From a virus (taxonomy: Duplodnaviria; Heunggongvirae; Uroviricota; Caudoviricetes): a DNA stretch of 64,000 bases. Below are positions 1,479 to 58,635 of the stretch, in pieces. The notes under the pieces are model-generated. The model was not told where the DNA came from. It was given only the letters and a program-made list of their open reading frames with translations, and did no database searches. The stretch's first letter is position 1. Every line of letters begins with the position of its first letter. Position numbers and translations under genes: made by a program. Location of the stretch: the IMG/VR virus record IMGVR_UViG_3300021387_000529, positions 90,811 through 154,810 of that record. The stretch is one strand, 5' to 3'.

Positions 1479-1484
1479 AAAAAT

Positions 1485-2471: not shown

Positions 2472-2525
2472 ATTAAAATCTCCTATAGATATTAAAATAG
2501 TCGCTATATTCAAAAAGACAAAAGT

Positions 2526-2575: not shown

Positions 2576-2606
2576 TTCGATGCCTACTAAATAATTACTA
2601 AATATT

Positions 2607-4219: not shown

Positions 4220-4244
4220 AAATTATTAAAAGGTTCAATTATTT

Positions 4245-4283
4245 TTGAACCTTTTTTTATTTTCTCATATATTATGTACGTAA
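4245..4283 (+). promoter_or_regulatory. Repeated sigma70-type phage promoter
   Basis: TTGAAC-N17-TATATT-AT-N3-CGTAA; one of 11 copies. Confidence 0.8.
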
Positions 4284-4311
4284 ATCGACAATAAAAACAG
4301 GAGATACACAG

Positions 4312-5361: not shown

Positions 5362-5400
5362 CGAAATAAAAGCTGGTTGCCATATGTTAATCTATTTTAT

Positions 5401-43810: not shown

Positions 43811-44911
43811 ATGGAACAGGAAGAAGACAAGACAGAAATCAGTGTAGAGATTTTAATGCGTCTTCAAGTTATTAGAACTAAACCAACAAAAGACCAGATT
43901 TTAATTAAATGTCTGAATGAAGCACATAATGACCATCATGCTTCAATGTCAGTGTCACTTAAAAAAGGCGTTTGCTATTGTTTCACATGTGGTTATTCAA
44001 AACCACTTACATCAATCTATTATGAGAGAACTGGAACATCTATATACAAAGACCTTGGAATGAATAGGCCAACGCACCAGCTTGGTTTTACTCGTAGGCA
44101 TAAACCAGACTACATCACTTATGAGCAATTACCTTCAACAGACTTCACTTTCAAAGGACAATTGCATCCTGTTCGCAATTCAGAATATGCTATAAATTGG
44201 GCCAAATCTCGTGGCTTTACACCTGAATTTTGTGAATTGAATGGCATCAAATTTACATCAAACAGCTTGACATATCAGACTTCTGACCCGAATAACAAAA
44301 AAGAAATGTCGTTCTTCTATAATTGTGTCATTATTCCAGTTTTCGAGAAGAACAGGTTGATTTCTTTTGAAGCTCGTGATACACTTGGAAAAGAAGCTTG
44401 GAAGCAAAGAATGCTCGCAGCTAAAAAAGACGTTGATGAAAAAGAATACAAAAAAGTATTATATCCAAAACATACGTCTATCAACACACTTTTCCAATAT
44501 GAGAAATTGGACACAGATAAAACCTTATACATTACAGAAGGTTTAATGGATATGTTTTCATTGCGAACTAATCCAGCTTTTAAGAATAGCTCGTGCATGT
44601 TCCATTGTAATCCAACACAACGTCAAGTTTACTTGTTGAAGAAGTTTAAGGAAATTGTTTACATCGTAGATAATGATGTTCCAGGATGGCGAGCATGTTT
44701 GAAGTTGATGGATGCTATTCCAGGTAAGGTTAAGTTTTTACGGCCACCAGAAAGAAAAGGAATAAAAGACATCAATGACATTCTTCAAGGAAAAGACCCA
44801 TATATTAAGTCTGTTGATGACCTCATCAAGATGGGTTGGATGAAAAAGATTTCAGATGATAAAAGCGTTCTCAATCTTTTAATTGAAGAAAAAACAAAAG
44901 AATTGAAATAA
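43811..44911 (+). CDS. DNA primase (Zn finger + TOPRIM)
   Basis: C..H.D..ASM..CYCFTCG; ITEGLMD; VDND; KDIND. Confidence 0.85.
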   Translation: MEQEEDKTEISVEILMRLQVIRTKPTKDQILIKCLNEAHNDHHASMSVSLKKGVCYCFTCGYSKPLTSIYYERTGTSIYKDLGMNRPTHQLGFTRRHKPDYITYEQLPSTDFTFKGQLHPVRNSEYAINWAKSRGFTPEFCELNGIKFTSNSLTYQTSDPNNKKEMSFFYNCVIIPVFEKNRLISFEARDTLGKEAWKQRMLAAKKDVDEKEYKKVLYPKHTSINTLFQYEKLDTDKTLYITEGLMDMFSLRTNPAFKNSSCMFHCNPTQRQVYLLKKFKEIVYIVDNDVPGWRACLKLMDAIPGKVKFLRPPERKGIKDINDILQGKDPYIKSVDDLIKMGWMKKISDDKSVLNLLIEEKTKELK

Positions 44912-44914
44912 TTT

Positions 44915-44953
44915 TTGAATATTTTAAAAATTTTTCATATATTATAAACGTAA
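44915..44953 (+). promoter_or_regulatory. Repeated sigma70-type phage promoter
   Basis: TTGAAT-N17-TATATT...CGTAA. Confidence 0.8.
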
Positions 44954-44978
44954 CAAACAATCAAACAGCGAGGTTACG

Positions 44979-45197
44979 ATGCAAAAACCAACAACACCAG
45001 AAATTATCATCAACTGGGGAAATCAATCACCAGAAAATGAGAAAGAATGGAAAGTTTGGGTTGCTGATATGATACGGTATGCCGTTCATAATACAGATGA
45101 AATCGACAACATCGCTCGAGATATTTTTGATGAGGTTCATCACGTTGGTTATACCGAAGGTTATGACTCATGTGAATGTGAAGGCGAGGGACTATAA
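44979..45197 (+). CDS. Hypothetical protein
   Basis: GAGGT RBS. Confidence 0.65.
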   Translation: MQKPTTPEIIINWGNQSPENEKEWKVWVADMIRYAVHNTDEIDNIARDIFDEVHHVGYTEGYDSCECEGEGL

Positions 45198-45210
45198 GGA
45201 CTAAATCTAT

Positions 45211-45609
45211 ATGGCAAAATTAACACCTTATGGAAAAGTTCTTGTGATGATGAGTGTCATTGACGAAAACTTCGCAAGAGTTTTTCTTCAAGCGACACCA
45301 TTACGTGAAGCAGTTCAAGCATCTATTGACTTAGATGACTTCACAAATCGTATAAACCAACTTCAAAGATATTCAACTTCTGTATTCAACAGTATCTCAC
45401 GTGATGAAGATGTTGATTTGGAATTTTTACAAAAAGAAGTAAACTGGAGTATTCAACAGTGCGATAAGAACTTGAAGCTTCTTGTTCCAACTGAGAATAA
45501 AACAGATACATTGCAGGTAACAAACGCGAAAACAGTTTTGCGATTGTTGATGAATTACCGGCAGGTTTTGGCAGCAATGTTGAACCGTATTAAAGTTCTG
45601 ACTAAGTAA
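45211..45609 (+). CDS. Hypothetical protein
   Basis: AAGGA RBS. Confidence 0.65.
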   Translation: MAKLTPYGKVLVMMSVIDENFARVFLQATPLREAVQASIDLDDFTNRINQLQRYSTSVFNSISRDEDVDLEFLQKEVNWSIQQCDKNLKLLVPTENKTDTLQVTNAKTVLRLLMNYRQVLAAMLNRIKVLTK

Positions 45610-45629
45610 TTTAGAAGGAGAAACAAAAA

Positions 45630-45833
45630 ATGTTGAGAGCGTATTTGACATTTAACGAGAACATTGATGCTGAGTCTTTAGCTGGCGACTTGAATGAAAT
45701 TGGCTATGATGCTGAACGTGAAGGTGACCAAGTTGCTGTTAATCTATCAGACATAAGTGAAGCAAAAAACCTTTTGGAAGAAATTTACAACGAAGATGAG
45801 GACATCATGTCTGTCAATTTCGTACGCCCTTGA
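45630..45833 (+). CDS. Small acidic protein
   Basis: AGGAG RBS. Confidence 0.65.
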   Translation: MLRAYLTFNENIDAESLAGDLNEIGYDAEREGDQVAVNLSDISEAKNLLEEIYNEDEDIMSVNFVRP

Positions 45834-45869
45834 AAAGGAGAGAAAAACTCTAAAACAGGTTGAAATAAG

Positions 45870-45989
45870 AGAAAAGAGAGGTGGAGCTGCTACCTGTTGC
45901 TGAAGGCTCCCATCCAACAACTACATGTCCCCCAAGTTGTTGGACGCTCTAGAACTTTCGGTTATGTACCGTTCTAGAGTGGCTTTTCT
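45870..45989 (+). ncRNA. Candidate four-way-junction structured RNA
   Basis: Four complementary stems visible by eye. Confidence 0.45.
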
Positions 45990-46012
45990 AAAAGTTAAAG
46001 GAGAAAAACAAT

Positions 46013-46165
46013 ATGCCATATGCTTCGTATGTTGATGAAATGGAAGATTTGTTTGGGTCTCTTGGCGACGATGCCAACAGTATAAATGAAGATGCGTATT
46101 CTTCAGAAGATGAAGTATTTTTGCACTTCGATGCTGTTGAAGAACTTTTAGATGAGACATTGTAA
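46013..46165 (+). CDS. Very acidic 50-aa peptide
   Basis: AAGGAG RBS; MPYASYVDEMEDL... Confidence 0.6.
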   Translation: MPYASYVDEMEDLFGSLGDDANSINEDAYSSEDEVFLHFDAVEELLDETL

Positions 46166-46172
46166 TTTATTT

Positions 46173-46550
46173 GGGGCATTCCTGGTTTCGACAGCTAGGT
46201 GATGTATCAAATGGTTCATGCACAGTGGTTATGACACCCTAAAAGTCAACGTAAGTAAACGACGCTAACTGTTACGAAGATGTTCGCATGGCTGCTTAGT
46301 CAGACTATGTGAATGTTGTTGGAGCAAAAAGACCCCAACCGTCAACTATCACAGGTGTTGGTAGTAAGATAGATTGGCGACACAACCACCATCTTGGAAA
46401 TCGTAGATGCGGAGCGAGAGCATGTAACGATAACGACAAAACTTGGGCAGAAACCGGTAGCTATCCCGAATCGAAAACTAGCTTAAGCATGTATAGAAGA
46501 CTATTTGTGAAAGTCTAGTATGGACATCGGTTCAATTCCGATATGCTCCA
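46173..46550 (+). ncRNA. ssrA: tmRNA, tag (A)DANCYEDVRMAA
   Basis: 5' GGGGCAT pairs with 3' ATGCTCC-A including G3:U70; GGTTTCGAC; T-arm ATCGGTTCAATTCCGAT; tag ORF 46261-46299 after the TAAAC resume motif. Confidence 0.93.
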
Positions 46551-46559
46551 CTCTAAGAT

Positions 46560-46910
46560 AAACTGCAAAACTTGCTGTTAATCTTAAAAATGAGGTATTT
46601 GGTTGTTCAGCTTCCTCACCAAAATAAAACAACCTGGTGGAGATTGGAAACCGTAAATACGGCATCCAGTTAAAAGCGGTCGGTTCGCCGAATGAAAAAC
46701 TCGATGACTTTGCTTACAATTGTGACCAAGGTTAGAGGCTCAAAAGTTAAACGTCTTGACACCGCCAAGATTGATACTTGCGAAGTTTCGGTACTTGTGA
46801 AGATGCCAGCTTCAATGGCTGGTAAGTAATGCCCATAAGTAGTTTGGGTGAGGTTGAGCTTCGCGCAAGGCTCTCAATGGAAGTTACCAAAATTAAGTAA
46901 AGACTTCCAA
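46560..46910 (+). ncRNA. Candidate structured ncRNA downstream of tmRNA
   Basis: Non-coding, raised GC, series of hairpins. Confidence 0.4.
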
Positions 46911-47033
46911 ATTTTTTGTGAAAAACTTGTTGAAGTTATGTTAATCTATTCAATGTAACATCAACTAAATAATAAAATTAAGTTGCATTTTTGGAGGTGC
47001 TACTAATTATTTTATAAGGAGAATTCATTTTCT

Positions 47034-47159
47034 ATGAGACAAACAACAACTTTATGGTTGACATTGCAAAATCCTCAAACTACTCAGAATGAAGATAGAA
47101 GAAGTCTCAATACACCAGATTTGTATAATGAAGATGAATATTACAAGAAGCGTTGCTGA
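47034..47159 (+). CDS. Putative Thr-rich leader peptide (41 aa)
   Basis: AAGGAG upstream; MRQTTTLWLT...; stop region pairs with the terminator arm. Confidence 0.5.
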   Translation: MRQTTTLWLTLQNPQTTQNEDRRSLNTPDLYNEDEYYKKRC

Positions 47160-47196
47160 TAAGAAAAATTACAAAATAAAATGTAATAAAGTTCTT

Positions 47197-47228
47197 AAAA
47201 GCAACCGCAAAAAACGGTTGCTTTTTTT
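47197..47228 (+). terminator. Terminator (attenuator) before the tRNA array
   Basis: AAAAGCAACCG-CAAAAAA-CGGTTGC-TTTTTTT. Confidence 0.85.
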
Positions 47229-47261
47229 ATGCTCTTTGACAATTTAGAGATTGGAAAACTT

Positions 47262-47343
47262 CGGGGAATGGCGGAATTGGTATACGCAACTGTCTCAAAC
47301 ACAGTCGCCGCAAGGATTGAGAGTTCAAGTCTCTCTTCCCCGA
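47262..47343 (+). tRNA. tRNA-Leu(CAA)
   Basis: Cloverleaf with long variable arm. Confidence 0.9.
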
Positions 47344-47349
47344 TTATAG

Positions 47350-47480
47350 ATTGCTAATGCAGTTACTGAGAGTTCCTTCGTGAAATGGTAAACACATTAG
47401 ACTGAAAATCTGACGCCTTTTAGGCTTGTGGGTTCGACTCCCACAGGAAATAAAAACCTCTTGGTGTTTTTCTTAGCAAT
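47350..47480 (+). ncRNA. Y-RNA-like handle RNA 1 (tRNA-Phe(GAA)-like cargo)
   Basis: ATTGCTAA/TTAGCAAT, TGCAG, ACTGAGAG/CTCTTGGT, TTCCTTC; internal D, anticodon and T arms. Confidence 0.7.
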
Positions 47481-47486
47481 TTTTAT

Positions 47487-47560
47487 GCTACCTTAGCTCT
47501 TAACGGTAGAGCACATGACTTGTAATCTTGGGGTTGTGGGTTCGAATCCCTCAGGTAGCT
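47487..47560 (+). tRNA. tRNA-Thr(TGT)
   Basis: Cloverleaf. Confidence 0.9.
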
Positions 47561-47743
47561 TACAAAGAGTTAACATGCACTCTTCAAAAAAAGCTGCGGT
47601 GACTCCATACCGAAATATGGTTGGCGCATCCCAAAGTGCACTATGCGTCATAAAACGGGCGGTTAGTGAAGCAGAAACCGTATAAAAATAGCTATTCTGC
47701 TTTTCGTAGGGTTTTGCATGCTTAAAAATCTTACAACTTTCAT

Positions 47744-47817
47744 GGGGCTATGGTGGAGTTGGTTACCACGCCTGCCTGTCACGCAGGAGGTCGCGAGTTC
47801 GATTCTCGCTAGTCCCG
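47744..47817 (+). tRNA. tRNA-Asp(GTC)
   Basis: Cloverleaf. Confidence 0.92.
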
Positions 47818-47820
47818 AAT

Positions 47821-47954
47821 AAAAACCAAAAGCAGTTGCAAAGAGTTACTTCGCAAATCGGTAATGCATTTCACTGTTAATGAAAAATTGGCTGGTTCAA
47901 CTCCAGCAGTAAAAGCCTTAAATGGTTACCTCTTTGTTCTATTCTTTGGTTTTT
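47821..47954 (+). ncRNA. Y-RNA-like handle RNA 2 (tRNA-Asn(GTT)-like cargo)
   Basis: AAAAACCAAA/TTTGGTTTTT, AGCAG, GCAAAGAG/CTCTTTGT, TTACTTC. Confidence 0.7.
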
Positions 47955-47958
47955 TCTT

Positions 47959-48031
47959 TGGGCCGTCGTCAAGTGGTAAGACCCGGGAATTTGGATCCCG
48001 TATTCCGCAGGTTCGAATCCTGCCGGCCCAG
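47959..48031 (+). tRNA. tRNA-Gln(TTG)
   Basis: Cloverleaf, U1-A72. Confidence 0.9.
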
Positions 48032-48036
48032 CTATT

Positions 48037-48283
48037 AAAAAGTGGCACAGGAAAACGTCCTGTGTTAACACGATAGGCAGTGAGGTTAAGAAATAAGCCT
48101 TCTTAGGAGTTCAAGCGAAACTGCAGTCACTTGTTCAACCGACCTTGCTGTAGGACCCCGATGAGTTGCAAATCTAGGGGATAAGGTACACCCTGTTATT
48201 AGAAGTGAGCTTACGTAGCAAGAGTCTTCTCGAAAGCGTGATAGTGCGTGGCCACGCTGAAGAAACATCATGTGTCACTTTTT
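48037..48283 (+). ncRNA. Candidate ~245-nt structured ncRNA
   Basis: Ends pair: AAAAAGTGGCACA/TGTGTCACTTTTT. Confidence 0.45.
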
Positions 48284-48288
48284 ATTAT

Positions 48289-48360
48289 GGCCGCCTCGTC
48301 TAGTGGTTAGGACGCGAGGTTTTCATCCTTGTAACAGCAGTTCGATTCTGCTGGTGGCTA
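48289..48360 (+). tRNA. tRNA-Glu(TTC)
   Basis: Cloverleaf. Confidence 0.9.
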
Positions 48361-48366
48361 AAATAT

Positions 48367-48463
48367 AAAATGTTTTAATGCAGTGTTAAACGGTTACTTC
48401 TACTTTTCTTTTCAGGAAAAATATAGGATATACCAACCGTTTTCGTTTTTCTTAAAACATTTT
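48367..48463 (+). ncRNA. Y-RNA-like handle RNA 3 (minimal cargo)
   Basis: AAAATGTTTTAA/TTAAAACATTTT, TGCAG, AAACGG/CCGTTT, TTACTTC. Confidence 0.65.
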
Positions 48464-48469
48464 TTATAT

Positions 48470-48541
48470 GGTTCCGTCGGCTAACGGTTAGGCCATCTGG
48501 TTTTCATCCAGAGAACGAGTGTTCGACTCACTTCGGAACTA
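48470..48541 (+). tRNA. tRNA-Glu(TTC)
   Basis: Cloverleaf. Confidence 0.88.
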
Positions 48542-48728
48542 ACGCGCTCACCTGAACTTAGCACTAGGACGGTGAGAATAGTTGGTTATAGCTAAGTAAC
48601 GCGAACTATAGGTTGCAAAGTAAGCAGAGGTGAACGCCAAGCCAAATGCTCATGATGAATACCTGCTATAAGCTCGAAGGATGCTGCGGCAAGCCAGTGT
48701 TTAAGCTCGAAAGTTCATCAACTTTTTT

Positions 48729-48800
48729 CGGAATGTGGGCCAAAGGTTGGTCGCTAGTTTTGGGAACTAGATTATGATAGTTCGAGTCTATTCATTCCGA
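48729..48800 (+). tRNA. tRNA-Pro(TGG)
   Basis: Cloverleaf, CGG start. Confidence 0.82.
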
Positions 48801-48932
48801 CTTTGAAATCCGCAGTTGTTTATCCATGGTAAGGGCAGCTGAAAACTATATCAAGCTTTTAGTATTGGAGCGAAAGTTTGGCTAGAATGTCTTTGATATA
48901 GAGGTTAAGTATGGTCTTAGCCAACCCTATTT

Positions 48933-49016
48933 GGGATGTTATACCGTAAGTGGTAGCGGGGCAGACTGTAAATCTGTTGCCTTCGGGCTCGGGGAGTTCG
49001 ACTCTCTCACATCCCA
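48933..49016 (+). tRNA. tRNA-Tyr(GTA)
   Basis: Cloverleaf with long variable arm. Confidence 0.88.
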
Positions 49017-49019
49017 TCA

Positions 49020-49214
49020 CAGTTTCTTCATAGAGTACGGCGGCGTCAAGCATAGGCGCCCTAAGGTATCAACCAAATGCATGGCCGGAGAACGGAGCTT
49101 CGTGAGACAGCACATTTGCAAAATCGTACCTTTTATAAGCTGTCAGGTGCTTCATTGGAAGAAAGGACTGAGATTAAACGATAACTCAGCTCGGGGCCGT
49201 TGACGAAGAAACTG
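49020..49214 (+). ncRNA. Candidate ~195-nt structured ncRNA
   Basis: CAGTTTCTTC/GAAGAAACTG and ACGGC/GCCGT close the element. Confidence 0.45.
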
Positions 49215-49221
49215 CTTTTAT

Positions 49222-49306
49222 GCTACAGTCGCATAGCGGTTGATTGCGCCGGATTTGTAATCCGGAGGTGTAAAAGCCCACGGGGGTTCGAATCCCTCCT
49301 GTAGCT
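49222..49306 (+). tRNA. tRNA-Thr(TGT) with unusual long variable arm
   Basis: Cloverleaf; variable region AGGTGTAAAAGCCCAC. Confidence 0.85.
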
Positions 49307-49439
49307 TCGAGACGTAACACGATGGTGAGTAAGCGTTAGTCATGTGTTAAAACCATCAAAAATGGTTATGTTAAAGAGAAGTTTAGCAAAATCGTTAAGT
49401 GACCTCAATTTTCACGTGGTCGATTAGCATAACTTTTAT

Positions 49440-49513
49440 GGCCTATTAGCTCTAATGGTCAGAGCGGATCCCCGTTAAGGATACGGTTGCAGGTTCGAGT
49501 CCTGCATAGGCCG
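49440..49513 (+). tRNA. tRNA-Asn(GTT), C33 variant
   Basis: Cloverleaf; loop CCGTTAA. Confidence 0.85.
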
Positions 49514-49528
49514 CATACAATGTTTTAT

Positions 49529-49601
49529 GGGATGTTAGCTCTAGCGGTAGAGCGGAGGACTGTTAATCCTTAGGTCGCAGGTTCGAACCCTGCACATCCC
49601 G
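49529..49601 (+). tRNA. tRNA-Asn(GTT)
   Basis: Cloverleaf. Confidence 0.92.
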
Positions 49602-49732
49602 TCTTTTACCAACCTTCTTCTATGTTGGTTGGTCGGTGCTTAAACTACGATTACCGAAAGGTTAGAGTCCCACCACAAAGCCATGTTGGTTGTTGAGTTC
49701 ACGGCTATAAAATGCAACTCAACTTCTGTTTT

Positions 49733-49807
49733 GGTGCTGTAGTTCATCTGGATCAGAACAAATGACTTCTAATCATTAGGTAGGGGGTTCAAGTCCCTCC
49801 AGCATCA
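49733..49807 (+). tRNA. tRNA-Arg(TCT)
   Basis: Cloverleaf. Confidence 0.9.
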
Positions 49808-49835
49808 AAAAAAAATAAAAATATTTCAAAATTTT

Positions 49836-49874
49836 TTGAATATTTTTGAATTTCTTCATATATTATAATCGTAA
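49836..49874 (+). promoter_or_regulatory. Repeated sigma70-type phage promoter driving a non-coding region
   Basis: TTGAAT-N17-TATATT...CGTAA. Confidence 0.8.
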
Positions 49875-49876
49875 AT

Positions 49877-50410
49877 CAGCTGCTGATAACGATAAGCTGC
49901 TCGGTTAAATAAGTGAGGGAAAATATGACGTAGGTACGGTGAGTTATTCAACGCAAATAAGTCGTAACGGTGAGATGCTGAAAAGCTCACATCGGTAACA
50001 AAGAGACCATGATGAAATGGTTGGCCGGATTGGTTCACAATAAGGAAGTGTGGTTCACTTCACGAAAATGAGACCGAATCAATTAAAAGTTCTTCACTCT
50101 AAGCTTGAGCCGAAAGGTAGAAATAGCTACGAGAAAGGTTTTTGAAGAACTTCCAGCTGGTAGTAACAGCTGACTGTAAAGACAGAATTACGAACCATGT
50201 AGAAAATGTTGGATCCGTGAAGCTCACAAAGCTGGAGTAACGGCAAGGTTCAAGTCCTTGTTCTACATTGAGATGGGTTCTATACAGTGTCCCACCTGAA
50301 ATGACAAAAGACTGGAGTAACCCCTAGCTATGGGAAGGTTAAACTGGACCTGCAAATAGCAAAAAGGCATACGGGTAATTCCTTTCCCACTGGGTTCCTT
50401 ATACCTACAA
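49877..50410 (+). ncRNA. Candidate large (~530 nt) structured ncRNA with embedded tRNA-like module
   Basis: Own promoter, no ORF, long-range stems, T-arm/acceptor module at 50197-50268. Confidence 0.55.
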
Positions 50411-50417
50411 TTTTTTT

Positions 50418-50502
50418 GGGTTTGTCCGCTAATTGGCAAAGCCTGCAGTTAAAGCCTACAATGGAGAGCTGCAGAATGTGAGTTCGAGTCTCATCAAATC
50501 CA
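50418..50502 (+). ncRNA. tRNA-like RNA with ~20-nt anticodon loop
   Basis: Acceptor GGGTTTG/CAAATCC, D loop, T arm, CTGCAG stem with enlarged loop. Confidence 0.65.
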
Positions 50503-50700
50503 CTATTACAAAGTTCTGAGAGGCATCTTAGAAAATACTTTGTGAGAAACGATTCTTCATAAAAAGGTGAGATAACAGCCAGTAGGTGAATAATAATCAC
50601 CATCTCGTTGAGCGCCTGGCATACGAAACCGAAGAGTAAGGACGAAGGCCAAGACCTGAAACGGAGAACGAATAGACCCGAGGGTACGGGGTCTCTAAAG

Positions 50701-50900
50701 CGATGAGCTACCGAGTGTAAATGCGTAAAAAGAGAGTAGAGCTTGTAACTCGAAATCTGGGATATGGGAAAGTCCTCGCTGGAAGAAACAAACTGAAGCG
50801 GAAGTTGCTAGCCAAAAGTAAGTTTGCAGAAATCGGGAATACTAGGGTCCACCACGGTGGAAACATGGTTATGCTGAAGGTTCGACTCCTTCTCCATCGA
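50701..50900 (+). ncRNA. tRNA-like RNA with large internal insertion (tentative)
   Basis: T arm GAAGGTTCGACTCCTTC; CGATG/CATCG acceptor-like closure. Confidence 0.4.
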
Positions 50901-51021
50901 CTTCTGGGTGTTGATACTTGTGAGCTCGCGGGGTTCCTTTCACAAGTGTAGCCTGCCCCGCAAATATGAAGGACTGGGACTATTCGCGATTGTTCTGGTC
51001 TGGGGGAAACGCGTTCCCCAC

Positions 51022-51181
51022 TGCAGTGTAGTGTAAACGGTGCACAGGAGCTGCTAGTAAGTGACAATAGGGCCTGACAATAGTCTACGACCTGCTTTGA
51101 GCAGATGACGGGACGACGATAGGGCCTGACGATAACCGAACCACAGCTCCAGGAGCGAGGTTCAAATCCTTGTTACTGCAA
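51022..51181 (+). ncRNA. tRNA scaffold with ~90-nt insert in the anticodon loop carrying a duplicated motif
   Basis: TGCAGTG/TACTGCA, D arm, GGAGCTG/CAGCTCC, T arm. Confidence 0.7.
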
Positions 51182-51184
51182 TAA

Positions 51185-51364
51185 AAAAGCTACAAAGCAG
51201 AATGAGACAGTTACTTCAAAATCATGCTTTGGGTGCCGTGTGTTGTAGGTTCGAGTCCTACCAGCTCTCTATAAAGCCTATTAAGGTGTGAGAGATGTAG
51301 CTCAATGGTAGAGCAACGTAAAAAATTTCGAAACTATACTGTTTCGCTTATTCTTGTAGCTTTT
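51185..51364 (+). ncRNA. YrlA-like Y RNA (handle RNA 4, permuted T-acceptor-D module)
   Basis: Handle motif plus T arm GTAGGTTCGAGTCCTAC upstream of D arm GCTCAATGGTAGAGC. Confidence 0.8.
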
Positions 51365-51370
51365 GTTTTT

Positions 51371-51443
51371 GGGATATTGGTAAAATGGTGCATACGCCTG
51401 ACTGTCACTCAGGAGAGCGCGAGTTCAATTCTCGCATATCCCG
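51371..51443 (+). tRNA. tRNA-Asp(GTC)
   Basis: Cloverleaf. Confidence 0.88.
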
Positions 51444-51677
51444 TACGTTAAAGTTCCAGACCAATCACACGCAAAATCCAGAACTGAAACTGAGACGTAA
51501 AAAACGGTTGTAAAACAAGCATGTTAACCAGAGTTGGCCGTAATAATCAAACTCGAGCATGTGCTACCACGACAGGTTACGGTGATATTTGTGTGGTTCC
51601 GACGGAAAGTGCAGGTTGCAAATAATGAACCTGTCCCTGCACTTAGCTTTTTACTTTGAAAAACGGAGGCAAAACTT

Positions 51678-52175
51678 ATGAAAAATAAACCTTCTAAGTT
51701 TTATGTCTATTGGATAGAGTTCAAAATGAAAGATGGTTCTATTAAGAACAACACTTTCATATATGACTTCAAAAATAAACGTGTCGTAATTGACACTAAA
51801 AAAACAATTGGTAAGTTCTTCTATTTTGGAGACTGGGCAAACCTTTTAACTGGTAAACCACGACCAAATGTAACTTACAGAGGAAAGTTTGCACGCAGAA
51901 ATGCTAAAACATATGCTGAGTACATCCAGTATGAGTTGGAATATGATGCAAAGGGATTTCAGCAAAAAGTTGATGCTGGTCTGAAAGCAATTCCAGATGC
52001 TGTATCAGCTAAAGTACGGTTTGGCCGTGCAAATTCAAAATGTGTTCCATTCAAAAGTGATGTTCGAGAAATCGACCGTTACAGAATGAACAAAAAGACT
52101 AGGATTGGTTTTTGTAGCAATATATTGCGAGAAATTCCAAATCGTAGCCAAGTAACTTCGGCGCTATATAGTTAA
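51678..52175 (+). CDS. Basic hypothetical protein inside the RNA island
   Basis: GGAGG RBS, 165 aa. Confidence 0.7.
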   Translation: MKNKPSKFYVYWIEFKMKDGSIKNNTFIYDFKNKRVVIDTKKTIGKFFYFGDWANLLTGKPRPNVTYRGKFARRNAKTYAEYIQYELEYDAKGFQQKVDAGLKAIPDAVSAKVRFGRANSKCVPFKSDVREIDRYRMNKKTRIGFCSNILREIPNRSQVTSALYS

Positions 52176-52195
52176 TCTATATAACATATATTTTT

Positions 52196-52728
52196 GCCCT
52201 TCGCCATTTAGGGCCCCCAGAGAGTTGCGCAACTCGTTTGAATGGGAGTCTGGCGTATCCAAGCGGTGAATGGAGGGTGAATGTGCGTGTATTTTCGGAG
52301 ACGCCTTCACTTAGTAGTTCACTGGCAGAATGTCGAAATCGAGGTGATTATCATCCGAATGAATCCCTCATGCGCTTCTTGGAAAAAGGTTAAACCAGTA
52401 CAGTGCGGGTCATGCCGTGGAAGGGCGCTACTGCAATTATAAGTCTTACGGAATGAAGAGTTGGTAACTCTCGTAATCCTGCGCAAGCGTGTAAAAAGCG
52501 CCCCGAGATTCAGGTGAGAAACGGAAAAACTTCCAATGTAAGAGAGTGAGAGTGGTTACAACCTAGACTACACACTCAAGTAAGTTGCTGCTTATCAAGA
52601 TGAAAGTTAATATCTTGTTGGGAATTTGCAATCCTGTAAAAAGACTGGAGTATGAGGTCATTCCGAAAGAAACAGACAACGATGCACGTGAAACAACTGC
52701 GTAGCTAACACGTAAAATAAGACTGCGT
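52196..52728 (+). ncRNA. Candidate large structured ncRNA(s), two closed domains
   Basis: GCCCTTC/GAAGGGC; AGTCTTA/TAAGACT; CGGAATGA/TCATTCCG. Confidence 0.5.
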
Positions 52729-52732
52729 GCCA

Positions 52733-52806
52733 CGGGCAATAGACCAGTTGGTTAAGCCGCTTCGCCTGGGACGAAGAGATCGGGGGTTCGAATCCCTCTT
52801 GCCCGA
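52733..52806 (+). tRNA. tRNA-Pro(TGG), C33 variant
   Basis: Cloverleaf; loop CCTGGGA. Confidence 0.85.
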
Positions 52807-52878
52807 AAATCGAGAGAGTCGACTATCTCGAGAGTAGACTACATGTTTATTGTGTACAGGTATCATGCAGTTGAATAA

Positions 52879-52950
52879 TGGACTATAGTTTAGCTGGAAG
52901 AATGCTGGCCCTTAGTGCTGGAGGCGTAAGTTCGGATCTTACTAGTCCAT
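52879..52950 (+). tRNA. Atypical tRNA with TTA anticodon (pseudo-tRNA or ochre suppressor)
   Basis: TGGACTA/TAGTCCA; loop CCTTAGT; T loop TTCGGAT. Confidence 0.55.
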
Positions 52951-53001
52951 CTATATGGAGGAAATGCTTATGACTTATCATTAGGATAGGAGATTATCCA
53001 A

Positions 53002-53280
53002 ATGAGTAATAGTTATACAGAGTCCGCATTTTATCGTGAAAACATTCGTTACAGAAATCGTGGAACACGGAAAGGTAAAATTTTCAATCGTGTTTGGACA
53101 CGATACATGAAGCGAGCAGTTGTTTCGACTAACAATTGGTTGATTAACCAGAAAAAGTCGTATAGACGTCAAGAATTGAAAAGAATTGACATCAATTCTG
53201 ACGACGAATTGATTGAGGTAATCGAGGCCAATATTGCTGACACTTACAAAGATGTTGCACAATGGTATTGGTTCGATTAA
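53002..53280 (+). CDS. Hypothetical protein
   Basis: AGGAG RBS. Confidence 0.65.
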   Translation: MSNSYTESAFYRENIRYRNRGTRKGKIFNRVWTRYMKRAVVSTNNWLINQKKSYRRQELKRIDINSDDELIEVIEANIADTYKDVAQWYWFD

Positions 53281-53338
53281 TATAATTGTTGATTGGGCCT
53301 CTTGAACAGCTTTCGAAAGAGAGACAAGAGGTCATTAT

Positions 53339-53468
53339 AAAAAGCTTTATCAACGTTGGTTCGATTCCAACCGACTTCTCATCCGTGAGGGTACATGTAT
53401 GGCTTGCAGAAATTGAATGCAGGTAGAGGAGCCGTAGTTTAGTATGGCGAGAACCAGTAGAGTTTTTT
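53339..53468 (+). ncRNA. Second permuted tRNA mimic (YrlA-like topology, no handle motif)
   Basis: 12-bp closing stem; T arm GTTGGTTCGATTCCAAC precedes acceptor stem and D arm. Confidence 0.6.
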
Positions 53469-53473
53469 ATTAT

Positions 53474-53545
53474 GGTTCGTTAGAACAGTGGTTAGTTTGC
53501 AAGACTCTCAATCTTGAGACATGGGTTCGAATCCCTTACGAACTA
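53474..53545 (+). tRNA. tRNA-Glu(CTC)
   Basis: Cloverleaf. Confidence 0.85.
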
Positions 53546-53572
53546 GAAATCCATTTTTATACTAATTATTCT

Positions 53573-54190
53573 ATGGAAAGAATAAGGTATATTTATGAGA
53601 TTAAAAATTTGGTTAATGGAAAAACTTACATTGGCCAGCATACTTTGAGGGAAGGACGCACTTTTGAAACTGATGTTTATTATGGTTCTGGAGTTCTTAT
53701 AAATAGAGCTCAAAGAAAATACGGTTTAGAAAACTTTGAAAAAACGATTGTTATTTCAGGATTTTTTACTAAAGAGCAAATAAACCGTTTTGAAAGGTGC
53801 ATGATTAGGATTGAACGATTCTTAGGAAAAGCAGAATATAATATTGCTGACGGTGGTGAAGGTTGGAGTGAAGGCATGAGAGAAGCTCATAAAGCATCCA
53901 TGACACCAGAACACAATCAGAAAATATCAGAAGCCAATAAAGAGCGTTTAGCAAAAATGTCACCTGAAGAGCGTTCAAAAAAATGTTTTGGCGGTAAGCA
54001 TAATAGTTTTCTTGGACGTCATCATACAGATGAGTATAAAAAATACATGTCTGAACGAATGAAAGGAAATCTTATTGGTTCTAAGAACGGCTCTTTTGGA
54101 AAGAGATGGTGGACAAATGGAAAAGAAAATATAAAAGCTGAAGTTTGTCCTGAAGGTTTTAGGCCTGGAAGGACTTGTCGAACTAAATAA
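53573..54190 (+). CDS. GIY-YIG homing endonuclease with NUMOD3-like tail
   Basis: YIYEIKNLVNGKTYIGQH, YYGSG, YNIADGG, GRHHTDE; start moved to ATG 53573. Confidence 0.9.
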   Translation: MERIRYIYEIKNLVNGKTYIGQHTLREGRTFETDVYYGSGVLINRAQRKYGLENFEKTIVISGFFTKEQINRFERCMIRIERFLGKAEYNIADGGEGWSEGMREAHKASMTPEHNQKISEANKERLAKMSPEERSKKCFGGKHNSFLGRHHTDEYKKYMSERMKGNLIGSKNGSFGKRWWTNGKENIKAEVCPEGFRPGRTCRTK

Positions 54191-54196
54191 CTATAT

Positions 54197-54270
54197 AGGT
54201 GAGTGGCTACAATGGTACAGCAGCGGTCTCCAAAACCGCCATTTTGCAAGTTCGAGTCTTGCCTCGCCTA
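54197..54270 (+). tRNA. tRNA-Trp(CCA)
   Basis: Cloverleaf. Confidence 0.9.
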
Positions 54271-54278
54271 ATACACAT

Positions 54279-54355
54279 AGCAGGTTGAAGCACTGGTTGT
54301 GGCTTACGAGGCTCATAACCTCGACATCAGGGTGGTTCGATTCCACCACCTGCCA
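54279..54355 (+). tRNA. tRNA-Met(CAT), initiator-like
   Basis: Cloverleaf with 1:72 mismatch (A:C). Confidence 0.85.
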
Positions 54356-54356
54356 T

Positions 54357-54514
54357 AAAAACATAAAAAGCAGATGTTGCGGTTACTTCTATACAAATTA
54401 AGCAAATTTGGTCGCTCAATTAAAATAGGCTGACTGCGCATTATAATCGGGGCACAGAGCGCTGTGTGACTCAGCAAATCCCGTTTCCCGCGACGAGTAT
54501 TCTTTTATGTTTTT
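54357..54514 (+). ncRNA. Y-RNA-like handle RNA 5
   Basis: AAAAACATAAAA/TTTTATGTTTTT, AGCAG, GTTGCGG/CCGCGAC, TTACTTC, TATTC. Confidence 0.7.
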
Positions 54515-54520
54515 TCATAT

Positions 54521-54593
54521 TCTCCCGTAGCATAGTTGGTAGTGCATCGGACTCTGGATCCGTATCGGGTGCGTTCGAGTCGTACCGGGAGAA
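54521..54593 (+). tRNA. tRNA-Gln(CTG)
   Basis: Cloverleaf, U1-A72. Confidence 0.82.
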
Positions 54594-54782
54594 CTTAAAA
54601 GTAGATGCTGCGAAAGCGTGAAGTCAAGCGTTAGTAGTACCATAAAGCATAAAGTGAAATCTTTCAATGCGCTGAAATGCGAGGGTCTATTTTTCGAATA
54701 GAATAGGCTGCATTGGAGGAAAGTCTTCATGAATGACAAGTGGAGTCACAAGTTCTAGTTGGTTACTTGTCTAGAACACCAA

Positions 54783-54868
54783 CGGTCTGTGGTGCAACTG
54801 GCTGAGACACATCGCGCTTAGAACGCGACACATTAGAAACATTGAGAGTTCAAATCTCTCCGGGCCGA
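54783..54868 (+). tRNA. tRNA-Leu(TAG)
   Basis: Cloverleaf with long variable arm. Confidence 0.88.
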
Positions 54869-54891
54869 TTAATCTATAAATTATAAAATCC

Positions 54892-54980
54892 TACTTCTAA
54901 AAGCGGGATTAGCTGTTACTTCATTTTGAACTCATATCTCAAATAACAAGCTAAACAGCAATCAATTTTCTTTGGAGGTA
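54892..54980 (+). promoter_or_regulatory. Handle RNA 6 in the Ro60 leader, sequestering the Shine-Dalgarno sequence
   Basis: TACTTCTAAA pairs with TTTGGAGGTA; AGCGG, GCTG/CAGC, TTACTTC, TTTTC. Confidence 0.7.
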
Positions 54981-54986
54981 TTCTAT

Positions 54987-56648
54987 ATGTCAAGAATCTC
55001 AAAAGCTGCAAAAGCAGTTCGTGAGTCAGAGGTTTTGCGCTCTGACGAAATCGTTAAAAACTTCATGGGTGGCGACTCTTACAAGCTCGACCCACTTTCT
55101 ACACTTCGCGTCATCGCTGCATCTTCAATTTTTGGTGAAGCATCTTATTACAGAGACAACGTAAAAGACTCCAAAGTTGAGACAATAGACCTTGGTGCTC
55201 GTTTTGGCACAGACAGTGATGAACTCAACAAATGGCTCAAGTCTTTTAATGGCCAGTCAACTACAACTGTATTCACAAAAGCGATTGATGCTGCTTTGGA
55301 CTATGACTTCGAAGGAACTTTGAAGCTCGCAGTAGAACTTCGTAAGAACTACAATATGCGCCTCAATCCTCAGGTTATCATGGTTCGTGCATCAACAAAT
55401 GCAAAGCGTGCTGCTTTCACTGAGAAAAATCCAGGAAAATTCTTGGAGTATGAGTCACAGGTAATGTCACGCGCTGATGAGCCAATCACTCAGCTTGCCT
55501 ATTACATCGCAACTAACAAAGGCAAGAAAAAGATGCCAACAATCTTGAAGAAAGCGGTTGCTAAAAAGCTCAGCTCTCTTGATGCATTTGCAGTTAACAA
55601 ATATAAGAATGCTGAAATCGGTATGATTAACGCAGTTCGTTTGTCACACGCAAATTCTGCAGTTCTTGATGAGTTGATGAAAACTGGTTCAGTTAAAGTC
55701 GAGGAAAATTCTAAGACTTGGGAACAGTTGAAGTCTGAAGGAAAAACTTGGAAGGAAATCCTTTCAACAATCAAACTTGGACATATGGCACTTTTGCGCA
55801 ACCTTCGTAACATCTTCACAGAGATTGACGACACAGAACTTTGTAAAGAGGTTCTCGACCAGTTGAAGAAAGGCGTTGTTAAAGGCAAGCAGTTCCCATT
55901 CCGCTATTACAGCGCTTACAAGATGATTGAGCAGGCTGACAAGATGCATCACAGACCAATGGTTCTTGATGCTCTTGAAGAGTGTATCGACATCTCTATT
56001 GCAAATATGCCACACTTGAAAGGCAAAACAATGTGTTTGTCTGACAATTCAGGTTCTGCTTGGGGCACTGTTACAACTGAGTATGGTTCTGTACGTATTG
56101 CTGAGATTGACAACTTGTCATCAGTTATTACAGCTATGGCCTCAGATGAGGGATATGTCGGTAAGTTTGGTGACAAATTGATTGTAAAACCAGCATCAAA
56201 GAGAAATGGCGCACTTGCACAGACAAAAGAGCTTACACACAATAAATGTGATGATGTTGGTGGTGGAACTGAGGGTGGTATCTGGGAGTTCTTCAAGAAT
56301 GCTATCGACAACAAAGAGAAGTATGATAACATCATAATCTACAGTGATATGCAGGCTGGAACTGGTGGACTTTATGGTACAGATAAGCACATCTCAGAAT
56401 ATCGTAAACGTGGATATGACATCGGCTCACATGTAAATGTGTACAAACTTATCCAGGACTACCGTAAGAAAGTCAACCGTAAATGCAATGTAATGTGCGT
56501 ACAAACAGCAGGTTATGACAATATGGTTGTTCCACAGATGTCATATCGTACAGCACTTTGTACTGGTTGGACTGGAAAAGAAGCATCTTTCTTGGACGCT
56601 TATGCAAAAGAGTGGGATGCTGTTGAAAATAAGAACAACAAGCAGTAA
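54987..56648 (+). CDS. rsr: Ro60 / TROVE-domain RNA-binding protein with vWA domain
   Basis: ~553 aa; NFMGG.SY, LR..YNMRLNP, TWEQLKS, MALLRNLRN, QFPFRYYSAY, MIDAS DNSGS, IYSDMQ; start ATG 54987 after GGAGG. Confidence 0.92.
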   Translation: MSRISKAAKAVRESEVLRSDEIVKNFMGGDSYKLDPLSTLRVIAASSIFGEASYYRDNVKDSKVETIDLGARFGTDSDELNKWLKSFNGQSTTTVFTKAIDAALDYDFEGTLKLAVELRKNYNMRLNPQVIMVRASTNAKRAAFTEKNPGKFLEYESQVMSRADEPITQLAYYIATNKGKKKMPTILKKAVAKKLSSLDAFAVNKYKNAEIGMINAVRLSHANSAVLDELMKTGSVKVEENSKTWEQLKSEGKTWKEILSTIKLGHMALLRNLRNIFTEIDDTELCKEVLDQLKKGVVKGKQFPFRYYSAYKMIEQADKMHHRPMVLDALEECIDISIANMPHLKGKTMCLSDNSGSAWGTVTTEYGSVRIAEIDNLSSVITAMASDEGYVGKFGDKLIVKPASKRNGALAQTKELTHNKCDDVGGGTEGGIWEFFKNAIDNKEKYDNIIIYSDMQAGTGGLYGTDKHISEYRKRGYDIGSHVNVYKLIQDYRKKVNRKCNVMCVQTAGYDNMVVPQMSYRTALCTGWTGKEASFLDAYAKEWDAVENKNNKQ

Positions 56649-56815
56649 TTTACAATGGTGACAGTTTGCTACTGAGCAATGAGGCCATGCGTTACGGAAA
56701 TGGCCTCATAAAATTGCAAAAAGCTAAACTGCAGAGCATGCTATGGGAGTCGTAACCTCTCATTTCAGCCAACTGTTTAAGAGCGGTTTCACCTGCGTCA
56801 GGTTGGCAATTTTTT

Positions 56816-56897
56816 CGGTCAGTGGCGGAATTGGCATACGCATCTGATTTAAGCTCAGACGCCGTGAGGATTGAGAGTTCAAGTCTCTCCTGGCCGA
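56816..56897 (+). tRNA. tRNA-Leu(TAA)
   Basis: Cloverleaf with long variable arm. Confidence 0.9.
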
Positions 56898-56907
56898 CTA
56901 TATTCTT

Positions 56908-57183
56908 ATGATGAATGAAGAACTACTTAAAGACATTGTTGAAAGCAACTTAAGTGCAGATGCAAAAGTTGAGCTCATGAAGCTTCTTCTCAGAGATAAA
57001 GAAAAGATTGCTCAGCCTTATGAAGTAGTCTATCCTTATATTATTGAGAAAAGAATTACACCACAGGATTGGGACCCTTACAAAGTTACATGTGAAGAAA
57101 GCGGTGACTCTCTATGGTGGAAGCAACACATAGCAAATGCAGCTGCAGATTGTGTAACAAATAATCCTGTAGTCTATAACTAA
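56908..57183 (+). CDS. Hypothetical protein
   Basis: 91 aa ORF. Confidence 0.6.
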   Translation: MMNEELLKDIVESNLSADAKVELMKLLLRDKEKIAQPYEVVYPYIIEKRITPQDWDPYKVTCEESGDSLWWKQHIANAAADCVTNNPVVYN

Positions 57184-57192
57184 ATTTTTAAT

Positions 57193-57588
57193 GTGAGGCA
57201 CATGATGAAGACAAATGTTGCGCTATATAAATTTTTCTGCGCAATTGTGAAACATGGTTTTCTTCAATATTCTGAAGAAAACAGAAATGGCGAAACGCCT
57301 TGGATAATTCTATCTTCTCTTTTAGAAGAAGATGAGGTCGTCCGTTTCAGCAAAGAATACAGCGCAATTATTGACTTCGTTGACAAAAAACAATTTTTTA
57401 ATTTGCATAAAACATATTCACTTTCTGTACGGAATGCGGATTTAGATATTTTCTTCAAAGAACTGTTCGCATATTCGCGTCTTCATTGGAGAGCTGACAA
57501 ACCAATTCAGTTTTTCATATTTAAAGTGTTTATTTCTAAACTTTGGAAATTAAGAATGCGCCTTGCATTAAAAGTGAGGAAAGCATGA
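57193..57588 (+). CDS. Hypothetical protein
   Basis: 131 aa ORF; start may be a downstream ATG. Confidence 0.6.
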   Translation: MRHMMKTNVALYKFFCAIVKHGFLQYSEENRNGETPWIILSSLLEEDEVVRFSKEYSAIIDFVDKKQFFNLHKTYSLSVRNADLDIFFKELFAYSRLHWRADKPIQFFIFKVFISKLWKLRMRLALKVRKA

Positions 57589-57845
57589 TGAAACTAAAGT
57601 TTGTTAAAGCGTTGCTTGAAGTTTGTGAGACACCAGACGAAATCGATGAAGTTTTCGATATGGCTGGATACGATATGTTCACAGATAGATGTGCTCTCTT
57701 AATTGAAAGAGATTGTAAATATTTTGACTTACCAAAAGAGCCAGCCGCTCAGTATGAGGCTCTGAAAATAATGTACACAAATAGCAGCAGCCGTATGCAT
57801 CGAAAAATACAAAATGCAAAAGACATTATAAATGAAGCTTTATAG
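57585..57845 (+). CDS. Hypothetical protein
   Basis: GAGGA RBS, ATGA coupling. Confidence 0.65.
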   Translation: MMKLKFVKALLEVCETPDEIDEVFDMAGYDMFTDRCALLIERDCKYFDLPKEPAAQYEALKIMYTNSSSRMHRKIQNAKDIINEAL

Positions 57846-57860
57846 TGTTAATATATAATA

Positions 57861-58635
57861 ATAAAAAGAGTGATGGTTGTGCCAAGTGCTCAATCATTAA
57901 GAGGTCGATTTTTTCGATACTCTTTAGAGAATGGCCAGGGAGTCCTAACAGATGCTGGACGGCTTAATCATCTTGCTGAACGGTGGCAAGGCATTCTCTT
58001 AACGTTTTAGTTATTATCGTAAAATAACTTGGCGGTCGGGAGTGCTTCTGGCACTCGACTATTCGGCTTAGAGAATTAAAACCTAAGCAATTGAACAAGG
58101 AAAAGTTCTAAAAATCCGCGGATAACACAAGTTGGCGTGATATTCTTGTGGAACGGCCTATTGCATATTAGTTTCCGGTGGAAATCCGGCAGCGAGCAAG
58201 TATGAAGGCATAGGGGCAACGAGATAATGAGAGTTCATTATCCAATCGAATTTAAGATTCGGATAAAGCTAAGGGTCTGCAGCTCTAGAAACCCAAAGCA
58301 TGAAAGCCCAACAACGGTTAGAGTCGGGCAACATTCCATTGACAGTACCCGCCGTAGTGTTATAAAAACCCACTAGGACGGAGGCATGTTGATAACGAAC
58401 AGATAAGATGGAACTCAACGACTCGGATAGTTTTACCAATAAGCTGCTTGTCTCCGAACACTAAGGGTAATATGATGTTGCGCTAGTCCCTCACGGTGGT
58501 GGACAGAAAAACTACGGAAACTTACATGTGGGCGATGAAGCCCACCTTCATTAAAAGGAACCTGGTTCGGTAATCTCAGTATCCATCTGAAAGCCTGTGT
58601 CGCGTAATGCTAGTCAGGAAAGTGCCACTTTTTAT
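57861..58635 (+). ncRNA. Candidate giant (~775 nt) ornate ncRNA (GOLLD/ROOL size class)
   Basis: No ORF, raised GC, more than ten hairpins, next to a tRNA array. Confidence 0.55.

Follow-up and report, generated by a model that had tools for sequence, protein, structure and literature searches.

Two leader modules matched in composition to their own tRNA arrays: putative translation-dependent attenuators in a 301-kb phage

The stretch of DNA analysed here (the window, 64,000 nucleotides) covers bases 90,811 to 154,810 of the virus record IMGVR_UViG_3300021387_000529 (Caudoviricetes; complete at 300,878 bp, with direct terminal repeats), and harbours a tRNA array (array 1) preceded by a short open reading frame (ORF) and an intrinsic terminator. 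The same attenuator anatomy, namely a ribosome-binding site, a short ORF closed by a tandem stop, a nested antiterminator, a terminator and then the first tRNA gene, is found twice in this phage, the second copy preceding another array (array 2) outside the window. The two ORFs, hereafter leader 1 and leader 2, have complementary compositions, each matching the amino-acid set of the array that it precedes. In our view, these modules probably regulate transcription of the tRNA arrays through translation of their leaders. The support is computational throughout, and comes from the anatomy of the sequence, the match in composition, the alternative folds that are predicted and the conservation among strains, from which we infer leader translation, promoters, kinetic coupling and the regulation itself.

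Array 1 comprises 24 tRNA genes called by ARAGORN on the plus strand (window positions 47261-56898), interspersed with other RNAs, and a GIY-YIG homing-endonuclease ORF and a Ro60/TROVE gene lie in or beside it. Its tRNAs correspond to the amino-acid set D, E, F, L, M, N, P, Q, R, T, W and Y. The second gene is tRNA-Phe, and two tRNA-Thr(TGT) genes, already recognised in a first-pass annotation of this DNA, are located at 47487 and 49222. Array 2, detected by running ARAGORN on the whole genome, occupies genome (G000) positions 723-5387 on the minus strand and encodes tRNAs Leu(GAG), His, Gly, Leu(TAA), Ala, Phe, Ser, Cys, Met and Lys, i.e., essentially the amino acids absent from array 1.

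In leader 1, 37 of the 41 residues belong to the array-1 set, against a background of 0.566 of the residues in the large ORFs of the phage (binomial probability 3e-6). None of the 80,108 windows of 41 residues in these large ORFs reaches 37 in-set residues, the maximum being 35. A 41-codon ORF is in itself uninformative in a genome with 1263 ATG ORFs of 30-70 codons in the six frames, yet leader 1 is the only one among them that attains 37/41. Eleven of the twelve array-1 amino acids occur in it. Four residues, namely Ser24, a Lys-Lys pair (the last-but-two residues) and a Cys, fall outside the set, and the final codons lie within the antiterminator strand, a position from which a stall would send no signal anyway.

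Leader 2 was inspected after the idea had arisen from leader 1, and thus served as a test. Within this ORF (P0005), 40 of 48 residues fall in the array-2 set (background 0.458; binomial probability 9e-8), a match reached by 51 of 77,931 large-ORF windows and by 2 of the 1263 short ORFs, and each of the nine amino acids in the set of its array is represented. Cross-matching is poor, with 10/41 residues of leader 1 in the array-2 set and 14/48 residues of leader 2 in the array-1 set; when only array-exclusive residues are counted, the ratio is 31:4 in leader 1 versus 2:28 in leader 2 (Fisher 6.8e-12). For the peptide that it encodes, leader 2 also favours the synonymous codons that its array reads (39 observed vs 34.5 expected, p = 0.008). 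It spells Leu four times, always as CTY, which the first tRNA of array 2, Leu(GAG), reads; the Leu codons of leader 1 are TTG (three) and TTA (one), read by Leu(CAA) and Leu(TAA).

The first-pass annotation had proposed a leader-peptide attenuator sensing threonine. The 41-codon ORF that it described, with 7 Thr residues and the run ACA ACA ACT at codons 4-6, is indeed read at 47034-47159, and Thr is its most enriched residue (probability of at least 7 Thr in 41 residues of 0.007, given a Thr frequency of 5.5% in the phage). The attenuator layout holds in folding and recurs at array 2, but the Thr-specific part does not stand, the leader sampling nearly the whole amino-acid set of array 1. The composition of the leaders supports sensors that would each be tuned to the entire set of their own array, rather than centred on Thr.

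The module preceding array 1 is composed of the following features, all on the plus strand of the window:

47016-47021, Shine-Dalgarno sequence AAGGAG, read directly, 12 nt before the ATG at 47034 and invariant in the variant loci L018 and L019
47034-47162, leader 1 ORF (P0001), 41 codons (47034-47159 including TGA) followed by an in-frame TAA
47150-47209, antiterminator hairpin, long and imperfect, predicted from folding and invariant in L018 and L019
47197-47228, intrinsic terminator 1, with an 11-bp stem (47197-47225), a 7-nt loop and a T7 tract ending at 47228
47261-56898, tRNA array 1 (ARAGORN), first gene tRNA-Leu(CAA), dense first block at 47261-49808

The tandem stop TGA-TAA of leader 1 is located at 47157-47162. 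In the outer stem of the antiterminator, the last two codons and the stop pair with the 5' arm of the terminator, and the inner stems are formed by TAAGAA/TTCTTA and ATTACA/TGTAAT. A long alternative hairpin consuming this 5' arm had been noticed at the outset, as had a strong terminator just before the first tRNA, and both are borne out: the former folds at 47150-47209 with -18.9 kcal/mol when taken alone, and the latter ends 32 nt before tRNA-Leu(CAA), which starts at 47261. Terminator 1 is the sole strong plus-strand terminator within the 14 kb from 44500 to 58500.

The second module lies outside the window, on the minus strand of the genome:

L020 (G000:C1) 5700-5388, minus strand, leader/attenuator module 2

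Leader 2 is preceded by AAGGA, 8 nt before its ATG at 5614, and the 48-codon ORF (L020 5614-5468, minus strand) ends with the tandem stop TAA-TAG (5470-5465, minus strand). Only 5.8% of the large ORFs of the genome are closed by in-frame tandem stops, versus both leaders. Such stops would be sensible here, since the predicted switch is anchored on the stop codon and the phage encodes an ochre-suppressor-like tRNA (52879-52951). In the outer stem of antiterminator 2, GCTTGGG, contributed by the last codons, pairs with CCCAAGC, and a nested AGGATG/CATCCT stem lies inside it. Terminator 2 has a 9-bp stem (5419-5398), with AAGC in common with the antiterminator outer stem; its T-tract ends at 5388, and tRNA-Leu(GAG) begins at 5387, leaving a 0-nt gap. 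The stem core AAGCAAC...GTTGCTT occurs in the 301 kb only at the two leader terminators (genome 138009-138037 and 5419-5398), and since it is found nowhere else in the genome, the two modules may be paralogues or carry a common recognition element. A hairpin GCTGCTG/CAGCAAC is also present in the 5' untranslated region of leader 2 (L020 5654-5632, minus strand), and its 3' strand repeats GCAACTC, the terminator 5' arm located 220 nt downstream.

Folding both states, as the first-pass annotation had recommended, predicts mutually exclusive terminator and antiterminator structures for both modules. Folded in isolation, the antiterminator of module 1 reaches -18.9 kcal/mol versus -13.7 kcal/mol for the terminator, and the corresponding values for module 2 are -16.4 and -12.3 kcal/mol. 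Over the whole segment, the two states are nearly isoenergetic, with -20.7 (terminator) versus -18.7 kcal/mol (antiterminator) for module 1 and -22.1 versus -22.3 kcal/mol for module 2. Equilibrium folding with a masked ribosome was not discriminating, and folds of the nascent RNA were used instead. Before the 3' arm of the terminator is made, the minimum-energy fold is the antiterminator in both leaders, also without a ribosome, and the probability that the terminator 5' arm is paired amounts to 0.70 in leader 1 and 0.78 in leader 2. This sequestration persists with a ribosome footprint placed up to about codon 35 (leader 1) or about codon 41 (leader 2). A ribosome modelled on the last codons or the stop frees the 5' arm, the pairing probability being 0.24 in leader 1 and 0.05-0.10 in leader 2. 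A control based on terminators across the genome was confounded, because most of them lie 6-12 nt after a stop codon and hence under the ribosome mask; dinucleotide shuffles of the intervening segment were used in its place, and the leader 1 switch beats 99.7% of them (p = 0.003). As a candidate pause or protector hairpin, a TATTACA/TGTAATA pairing was seen in one fold, and is not the favoured nascent structure.

These features are consistent with the following mechanism. Each array would be transcribed as a single unit, at the start of which lie a translated leader ORF and a terminator/antiterminator switch, the RNA polymerase transcribing the leader while a ribosome follows. With fast decoding of the 41 or 48 codons, the ribosome would arrive at the tandem stop in time and cover the antiterminator's 5' strand, so that the terminator hairpin could fold and transcription would end before the first tRNA. 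If the ribosome were slowed within the first 35-41 codons or so, the antiterminator would form first and the polymerase would enter the tRNA genes, and an untranslated leader would have the same outcome. Because each leader is spelled almost only in the amino acids of its own array, the delay would report exactly a shortage of the tRNAs encoded there, whether arising from depletion or cleavage of host tRNAs or from heavy codon demand of the phage. The circuit would thus represent a negative feedback on tRNA supply with one sensor per array, in which the long leader acts as a stopwatch and not as a single stall site. At array 1, a boxA-like element just past the switch may in addition render the polymerase termination-resistant over the long untranslated array.

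Conservation of the modules was assessed in four variant loci, two for leader 1 (L018 and L019) and two for leader 2 (L021 and L022). In L018 and L019, both metagenome contigs, the flanks of leader 1, tRNAs included, diverge from the window by 5-15 sites per 100 nt. Between 47040 and 47240, the single change is ACA to ACG in codon 4, which is synonymous and still read by tRNA-Thr(UGU). In L021 and L022, the leader 2 ORF shows two changes, a Ser to Leu substitution that remains within the set and a synonymous TCA to TCG; four further changes all fall in unpaired parts of the antiterminator, every stem being invariant. The number of sequences compared is small, and recombination could yield such uneven divergence. 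The exact peptides are called as genes on 34 (leader 1) and 32 (leader 2) public contigs, and a search of 5.8 billion proteins returned only near-identical strain variants of both, with few one-residue variants. Beyond these strains, the leader region has no blastn match among 50,697 phage records, the terminator sequence has no exact match in an IMG/VR scan, and the neighbouring primase-like gene has no IMG/VR relative.

Several observations weigh against regulation through leader translation. The conservation check has two faces: the module is nearly invariant in divergent strains and absent from distant relatives, in which Ro60 is 54-60% identical and the array starts carry neither mini-ORF nor terminator, so that the design is not a conserved trait of the clade at large. 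Their tRNA arrays begin about 45 nt behind sigma-70-like promoters (CTTTAC-N17-TATAAT), and the array starts are non-homologous. In the strains, the few natural peptide variants include out-of-set substitutions. With regard to composition, the hypothesis for leader 1 was formed after its composition had been seen, this leader has no Phe codon though tRNA-Phe is the second gene of array 1, no excess of array-read synonymous codons is detected in it given its peptide (p = 0.28), and four-way wobble at U34 is required to read three Thr codons and one Pro codon in it. As for the switch itself, the shuffle test is weak for leader 2 (p = 0.18 for the delta and 0.04 for the sequestration), and no clear pause hairpin or 1:2-type protector was found among the predicted folds. 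Finally, at full equilibrium, with the 3' arm present, the terminator wins at every ribosome position, so that we infer a decision that must be kinetic; a terminator winning at full equilibrium is also what classical attenuators display. With respect to the distant relatives, a conserved small hairpin (e.g. GTGAGAGAGAAATCTCTCAC) precedes their arrays as a 5' element of a different kind (L023 600-680, L024 650-720, L016 2700-2767).

The most serious competitor is a pair of constitutive leaky terminators, providing a fixed low read-through or insulation from upstream transcription, with ORFs that sense nothing. The equilibrium folds just mentioned and the plain promoters with which distant relatives manage both fit this explanation, and in nascent folds the 5' arm of many ordinary terminators of this AT-rich genome is likewise paired to some extent with upstream sequence. 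It leaves unexplained, however, why the ORF compositions are complementary and each match their own array, why both stop codons lie inside the antiterminator 5' strand, and why the whole module is frozen among strains, and we consider it unlikely. Alternatively, each leader might be an ordinary gene for a small functional protein followed by its own terminator, with tRNA synthesis left to incidental read-through or to promoters that escaped recognition. In favour of this, a Shine-Dalgarno site precedes both ORFs, gene callers predict each of them on more than 30 public contigs, strains conserve the peptides, and leader 2 (48 aa) looks like a small hydrophobic protein, leader 1 (41 aa) being hydrophilic. 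Yet nothing other than near-identical strain variants emerged from the 5.8 billion proteins, array 2 has no room for a promoter, the conservation extends through the non-coding switch, and chance would have had to produce the composition match twice, a coincidence of roughly 1e-5 to 1e-6, which makes this explanation quite unlikely.

The promoter question was considered at both arrays. Two recurrent motifs are found upstream of leader 1, both on the plus strand:

46941-46949, promoter-like motif TTAATCTAT, about 90 nt before the leader 1 ATG, conserved in L018 and L019
47002-47009, second recurrent motif ACTAATTA, 18 copies in the genome

The 16 genome copies of TTAATCTAT are mostly intergenic and shortly upstream of genes, one of them upstream of leader 2, and this motif is a putative promoter. 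Most copies of ACTAATTA stand 5-30 nt before an ATG, and one also precedes leader 2; as an essential element at leader 1 it is weak, because L018 and L019 read ACTAAATA there. The two motifs look like two promoter classes of the phage, and they were also observed fused as ACTAATTAATCTAT at genome positions 5676 and 45457. Both occur upstream of both leaders, and neither is present downstream of the terminators. A promoter downstream of the terminator, which the first-pass annotation had named as one observation that would speak against attenuation, was seen neither by the sigma-70 scan, which returned no site in the 32-nt gap between terminator 1 and tRNA-Leu(CAA), nor with the phage motifs; at array 1, such a scan would not show phage-specific promoters of another type. 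At array 2, there is no room for one between terminator and tRNA. A TTGACA at 47237 was considered as a -35 box and rejected, as no -10 box fits before the tRNA and the hexamer is part of the boxA-like element. Internal copies of TTAATCTAT are located in array 1 at 52172 and 54869, which suggests that attenuator 1 gates mainly the part of the array before about 52 kb.

The boxA-like element occupies the gap between terminator 1 and the first tRNA:

47230-47242, plus strand, boxA-like 13-mer TGCTCTTTGACAA, conserved in L018 and L019

It is the sole match to TGCTCTTTRACAA in the window, and differs at one position from the E. coli rrn boxA, the first 8 nt being equal. The purine at its position 9 is tolerated according to PMC3177189. 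The core TCTTTGA is common to TGCTCTTTGACAA and to a box located about 205-230 nt before the 16S gene in Treponema parvum and T. pectinovorum; these Treponema rrn boxes read GTTCTTTGAAA, so that 9/13 positions match, including the core, and 4/13 differ. In five Treponema genomes, the exact phage 13-mer is not enriched, and none of the ten match loci screened contains an rRNA gene. The arrangement resembles rrn boxA/Nus antitermination (PMC3177189, PMC4807359) in that a boxA-like 13-mer lies 5' of a long untranslated RNA operon; in this phage it is found at array 1 only, where it is a candidate NusB/NusE site. Chance alone would provide about 0.9 boxA sites per genome when up to one mismatch is allowed, and for this reason we give moderate confidence to the view that this element makes the polymerase termination-resistant across the 10-kb untranslated array 1.

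This element also bears on a third explanation, factor-dependent antitermination, in which a protein of the phage or the host, or else an RNA, would recognise the stem core AAGCAAC...GTTGCTT or the boxA-like sequence and thereby control both terminators, and the ORFs would be incidental. The restriction of the core to these two terminators in 301 kb and the boxA-like sequence following terminator 1 are what this explanation would expect. Nevertheless, the boxA-like sequence lies downstream of terminator 1 and cannot act on it, array 2 has none at this place, the common core could reflect duplication of the module and the composition match finds no explanation, all of which renders it very unlikely. 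The least probable of all is a Thr-specific attenuator in which only the ACA ACA ACT run matters, sensing tRNA-Thr(UGU): in spite of the enrichment of Thr (7/41, p = 0.007), the three consecutive codons and the two tRNA-Thr(TGT) genes, the other 34 residues of leader 1 are equally restricted (30/34 in the array-1 set), leader 2 has one Thr and obeys the same rule with a different set, and the predicted structural effect is the same wherever within about the first 35 codons the ribosome stalls.

Regulation of the arrays through leader translation, the reading that we favour, has parallels among amino-acid operons. Multivalent leaders occur in enterobacteria, in the thr (Thr/Ile) and ilvGMEDA (Ile/Val/Leu) operons, and leaders of this kind are also known from trp, his, leu and pheA. 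The phage modules share with these attenuators a short leader ORF, a terminator before the first gene, an antiterminator competing for the terminator 5' arm, a fold predicted to be set by the position of the ribosome, and a leader rich in product-linked codons. The closest logic is that of the thr and ilvGMEDA leaders, where the product is an amino acid, whereas in the phage it would be the tRNAs themselves. The codons are also distributed differently, with 9-11 amino acids spread over 41-48 codons in the phage leaders compared with a tight run of one to three in amino-acid operon leaders. Further, as no 1:2 protector was found in the phage modules, an untranslated leader is predicted to read through and not to super-attenuate. 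Of the curated Rfam leader families (Trp, His, Thr, Leu and Phe leaders), none reaches its gathering threshold; the highest score, 22.3 bits for Phe_leader (E = 0.38, threshold 55), stems from the terminator hairpin.

The genes of aminoacyl-tRNA synthetases, which also belong to the translation apparatus, are switched by transcription attenuation on tRNA status, by the leader pheM in the case of pheST and by T-box riboswitches. In these systems, it is the charging of a single tRNA that is sensed, and the gene under control encodes a protein, whereas the phage modules precede tRNA genes. No T-box with a gathering score was found in the window, and none up to E = 5 in 46500-47300. A Phe-rich leader before the E. 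coli tRNA-Phe gene pheV was considered as a precedent and rejected, a promoter directly abutting the tRNA. Full-text searches of the literature returned no leader-peptide control of tRNA genes. The nearest published case is the long tRNA array of Anabaena sp. PCC 7120, which is supernumerary and stress-induced, being silent by default and induced when translation is impaired (PMC8421152). Its induction was mapped to promoter repeats, and the words leader, attenuat- and terminat- do not occur in the text (PMC8421152). Codon-matched leader control of tRNA genes would therefore be new relative to the literature searched, the type of switch itself being known.

A similar organisation is seen in the cultured Caulobacter phage phiCbK (JX100813), a tractable model of such a design, in which terminators are annotated directly before tRNA blocks (L129 2341-2570 and 4140-4303). 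The mini-ORF before the Phe-Val-Ile-Ile-Val-Gln-Gln block (JX100813, about 51340-51500) carries the run QFVRQIQVV, and gp083 (45 aa), before the Pro-Lys-Leu-Ser block, consists of P, K, L or S for 51% of its residues. Both phages have in common that a terminator stands in front of each tRNA block, together with a mini-ORF rich in the amino acids of that block. Their sequences and hosts are unrelated, and phiCbK shows short dense runs, in contrast to the cognate codons spread over the whole ORF in the phage studied here, whose two modules, unlike those of phiCbK, partition the whole phage tRNA set between them. We give even chances to a wider proposal, that large phages possess a tRNA-supply homeostat in which arrays are gated separately and the matching replacement set is switched on, with independent origins in the present Treponema-type phage and in phiCbK-like Caulobacter phages.

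The host named here rests on the flagellin of the phage, the best matches of which are Treponema genomes with 65-75% identity, making a Treponema host from gut or rumen plausible for this 301-kb phage. Some further observations concern the surroundings of leader 1 and the content of array 1. A phage tmRNA gene (46173-46553, tag DANCYEDVRMAA) is located about 480 nt upstream of leader 1, and the stretch between them (46554-46930) is without annotation and variable among strains. Array 1 includes, at 52879-52951, a tRNA with anticodon TTA, of the ochre-suppressor type; the standard code nonetheless gives a normal tiling of ORFs, and the most frequent stop is TAA (181 of 242 large ORFs). The GIY-YIG endonuclease ORF occupies a 650-nt gap between tRNA-Glu(CTC) and tRNA-Trp (53444-54190). 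In the contig L011, which is 97% identical, the same two tRNAs are only 11 nt apart (3433-3592), and the ORF is therefore read as an insertion polymorphism.

To our knowledge, the regulation of phage tRNA genes is largely unknown, and these genes are usually discussed as compensation for codon usage or as spares against cleavage of host tRNAs. If the mechanism proposed here is true, a cis-acting sensor of the decoding of its own array's codons would give both ideas a concrete mechanism, and would explain why the tRNA genes are grouped as they are found. Ribosome-mediated attenuation would then be applied to tRNA genes, its role extending from amino-acid supply to tRNA supply. The paired complementary leaders offer an unusually clean internal control, with two sensors and two disjoint amino-acid sets in one phage, and the modules, which are self-contained within about 200 nt, might serve as sensors of tRNA availability. 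For a phage equipped in this way, the arrangement would mean that it senses which part of the host tRNA pool fails, be it through depletion, an anticodon-nuclease defence or codon demand.

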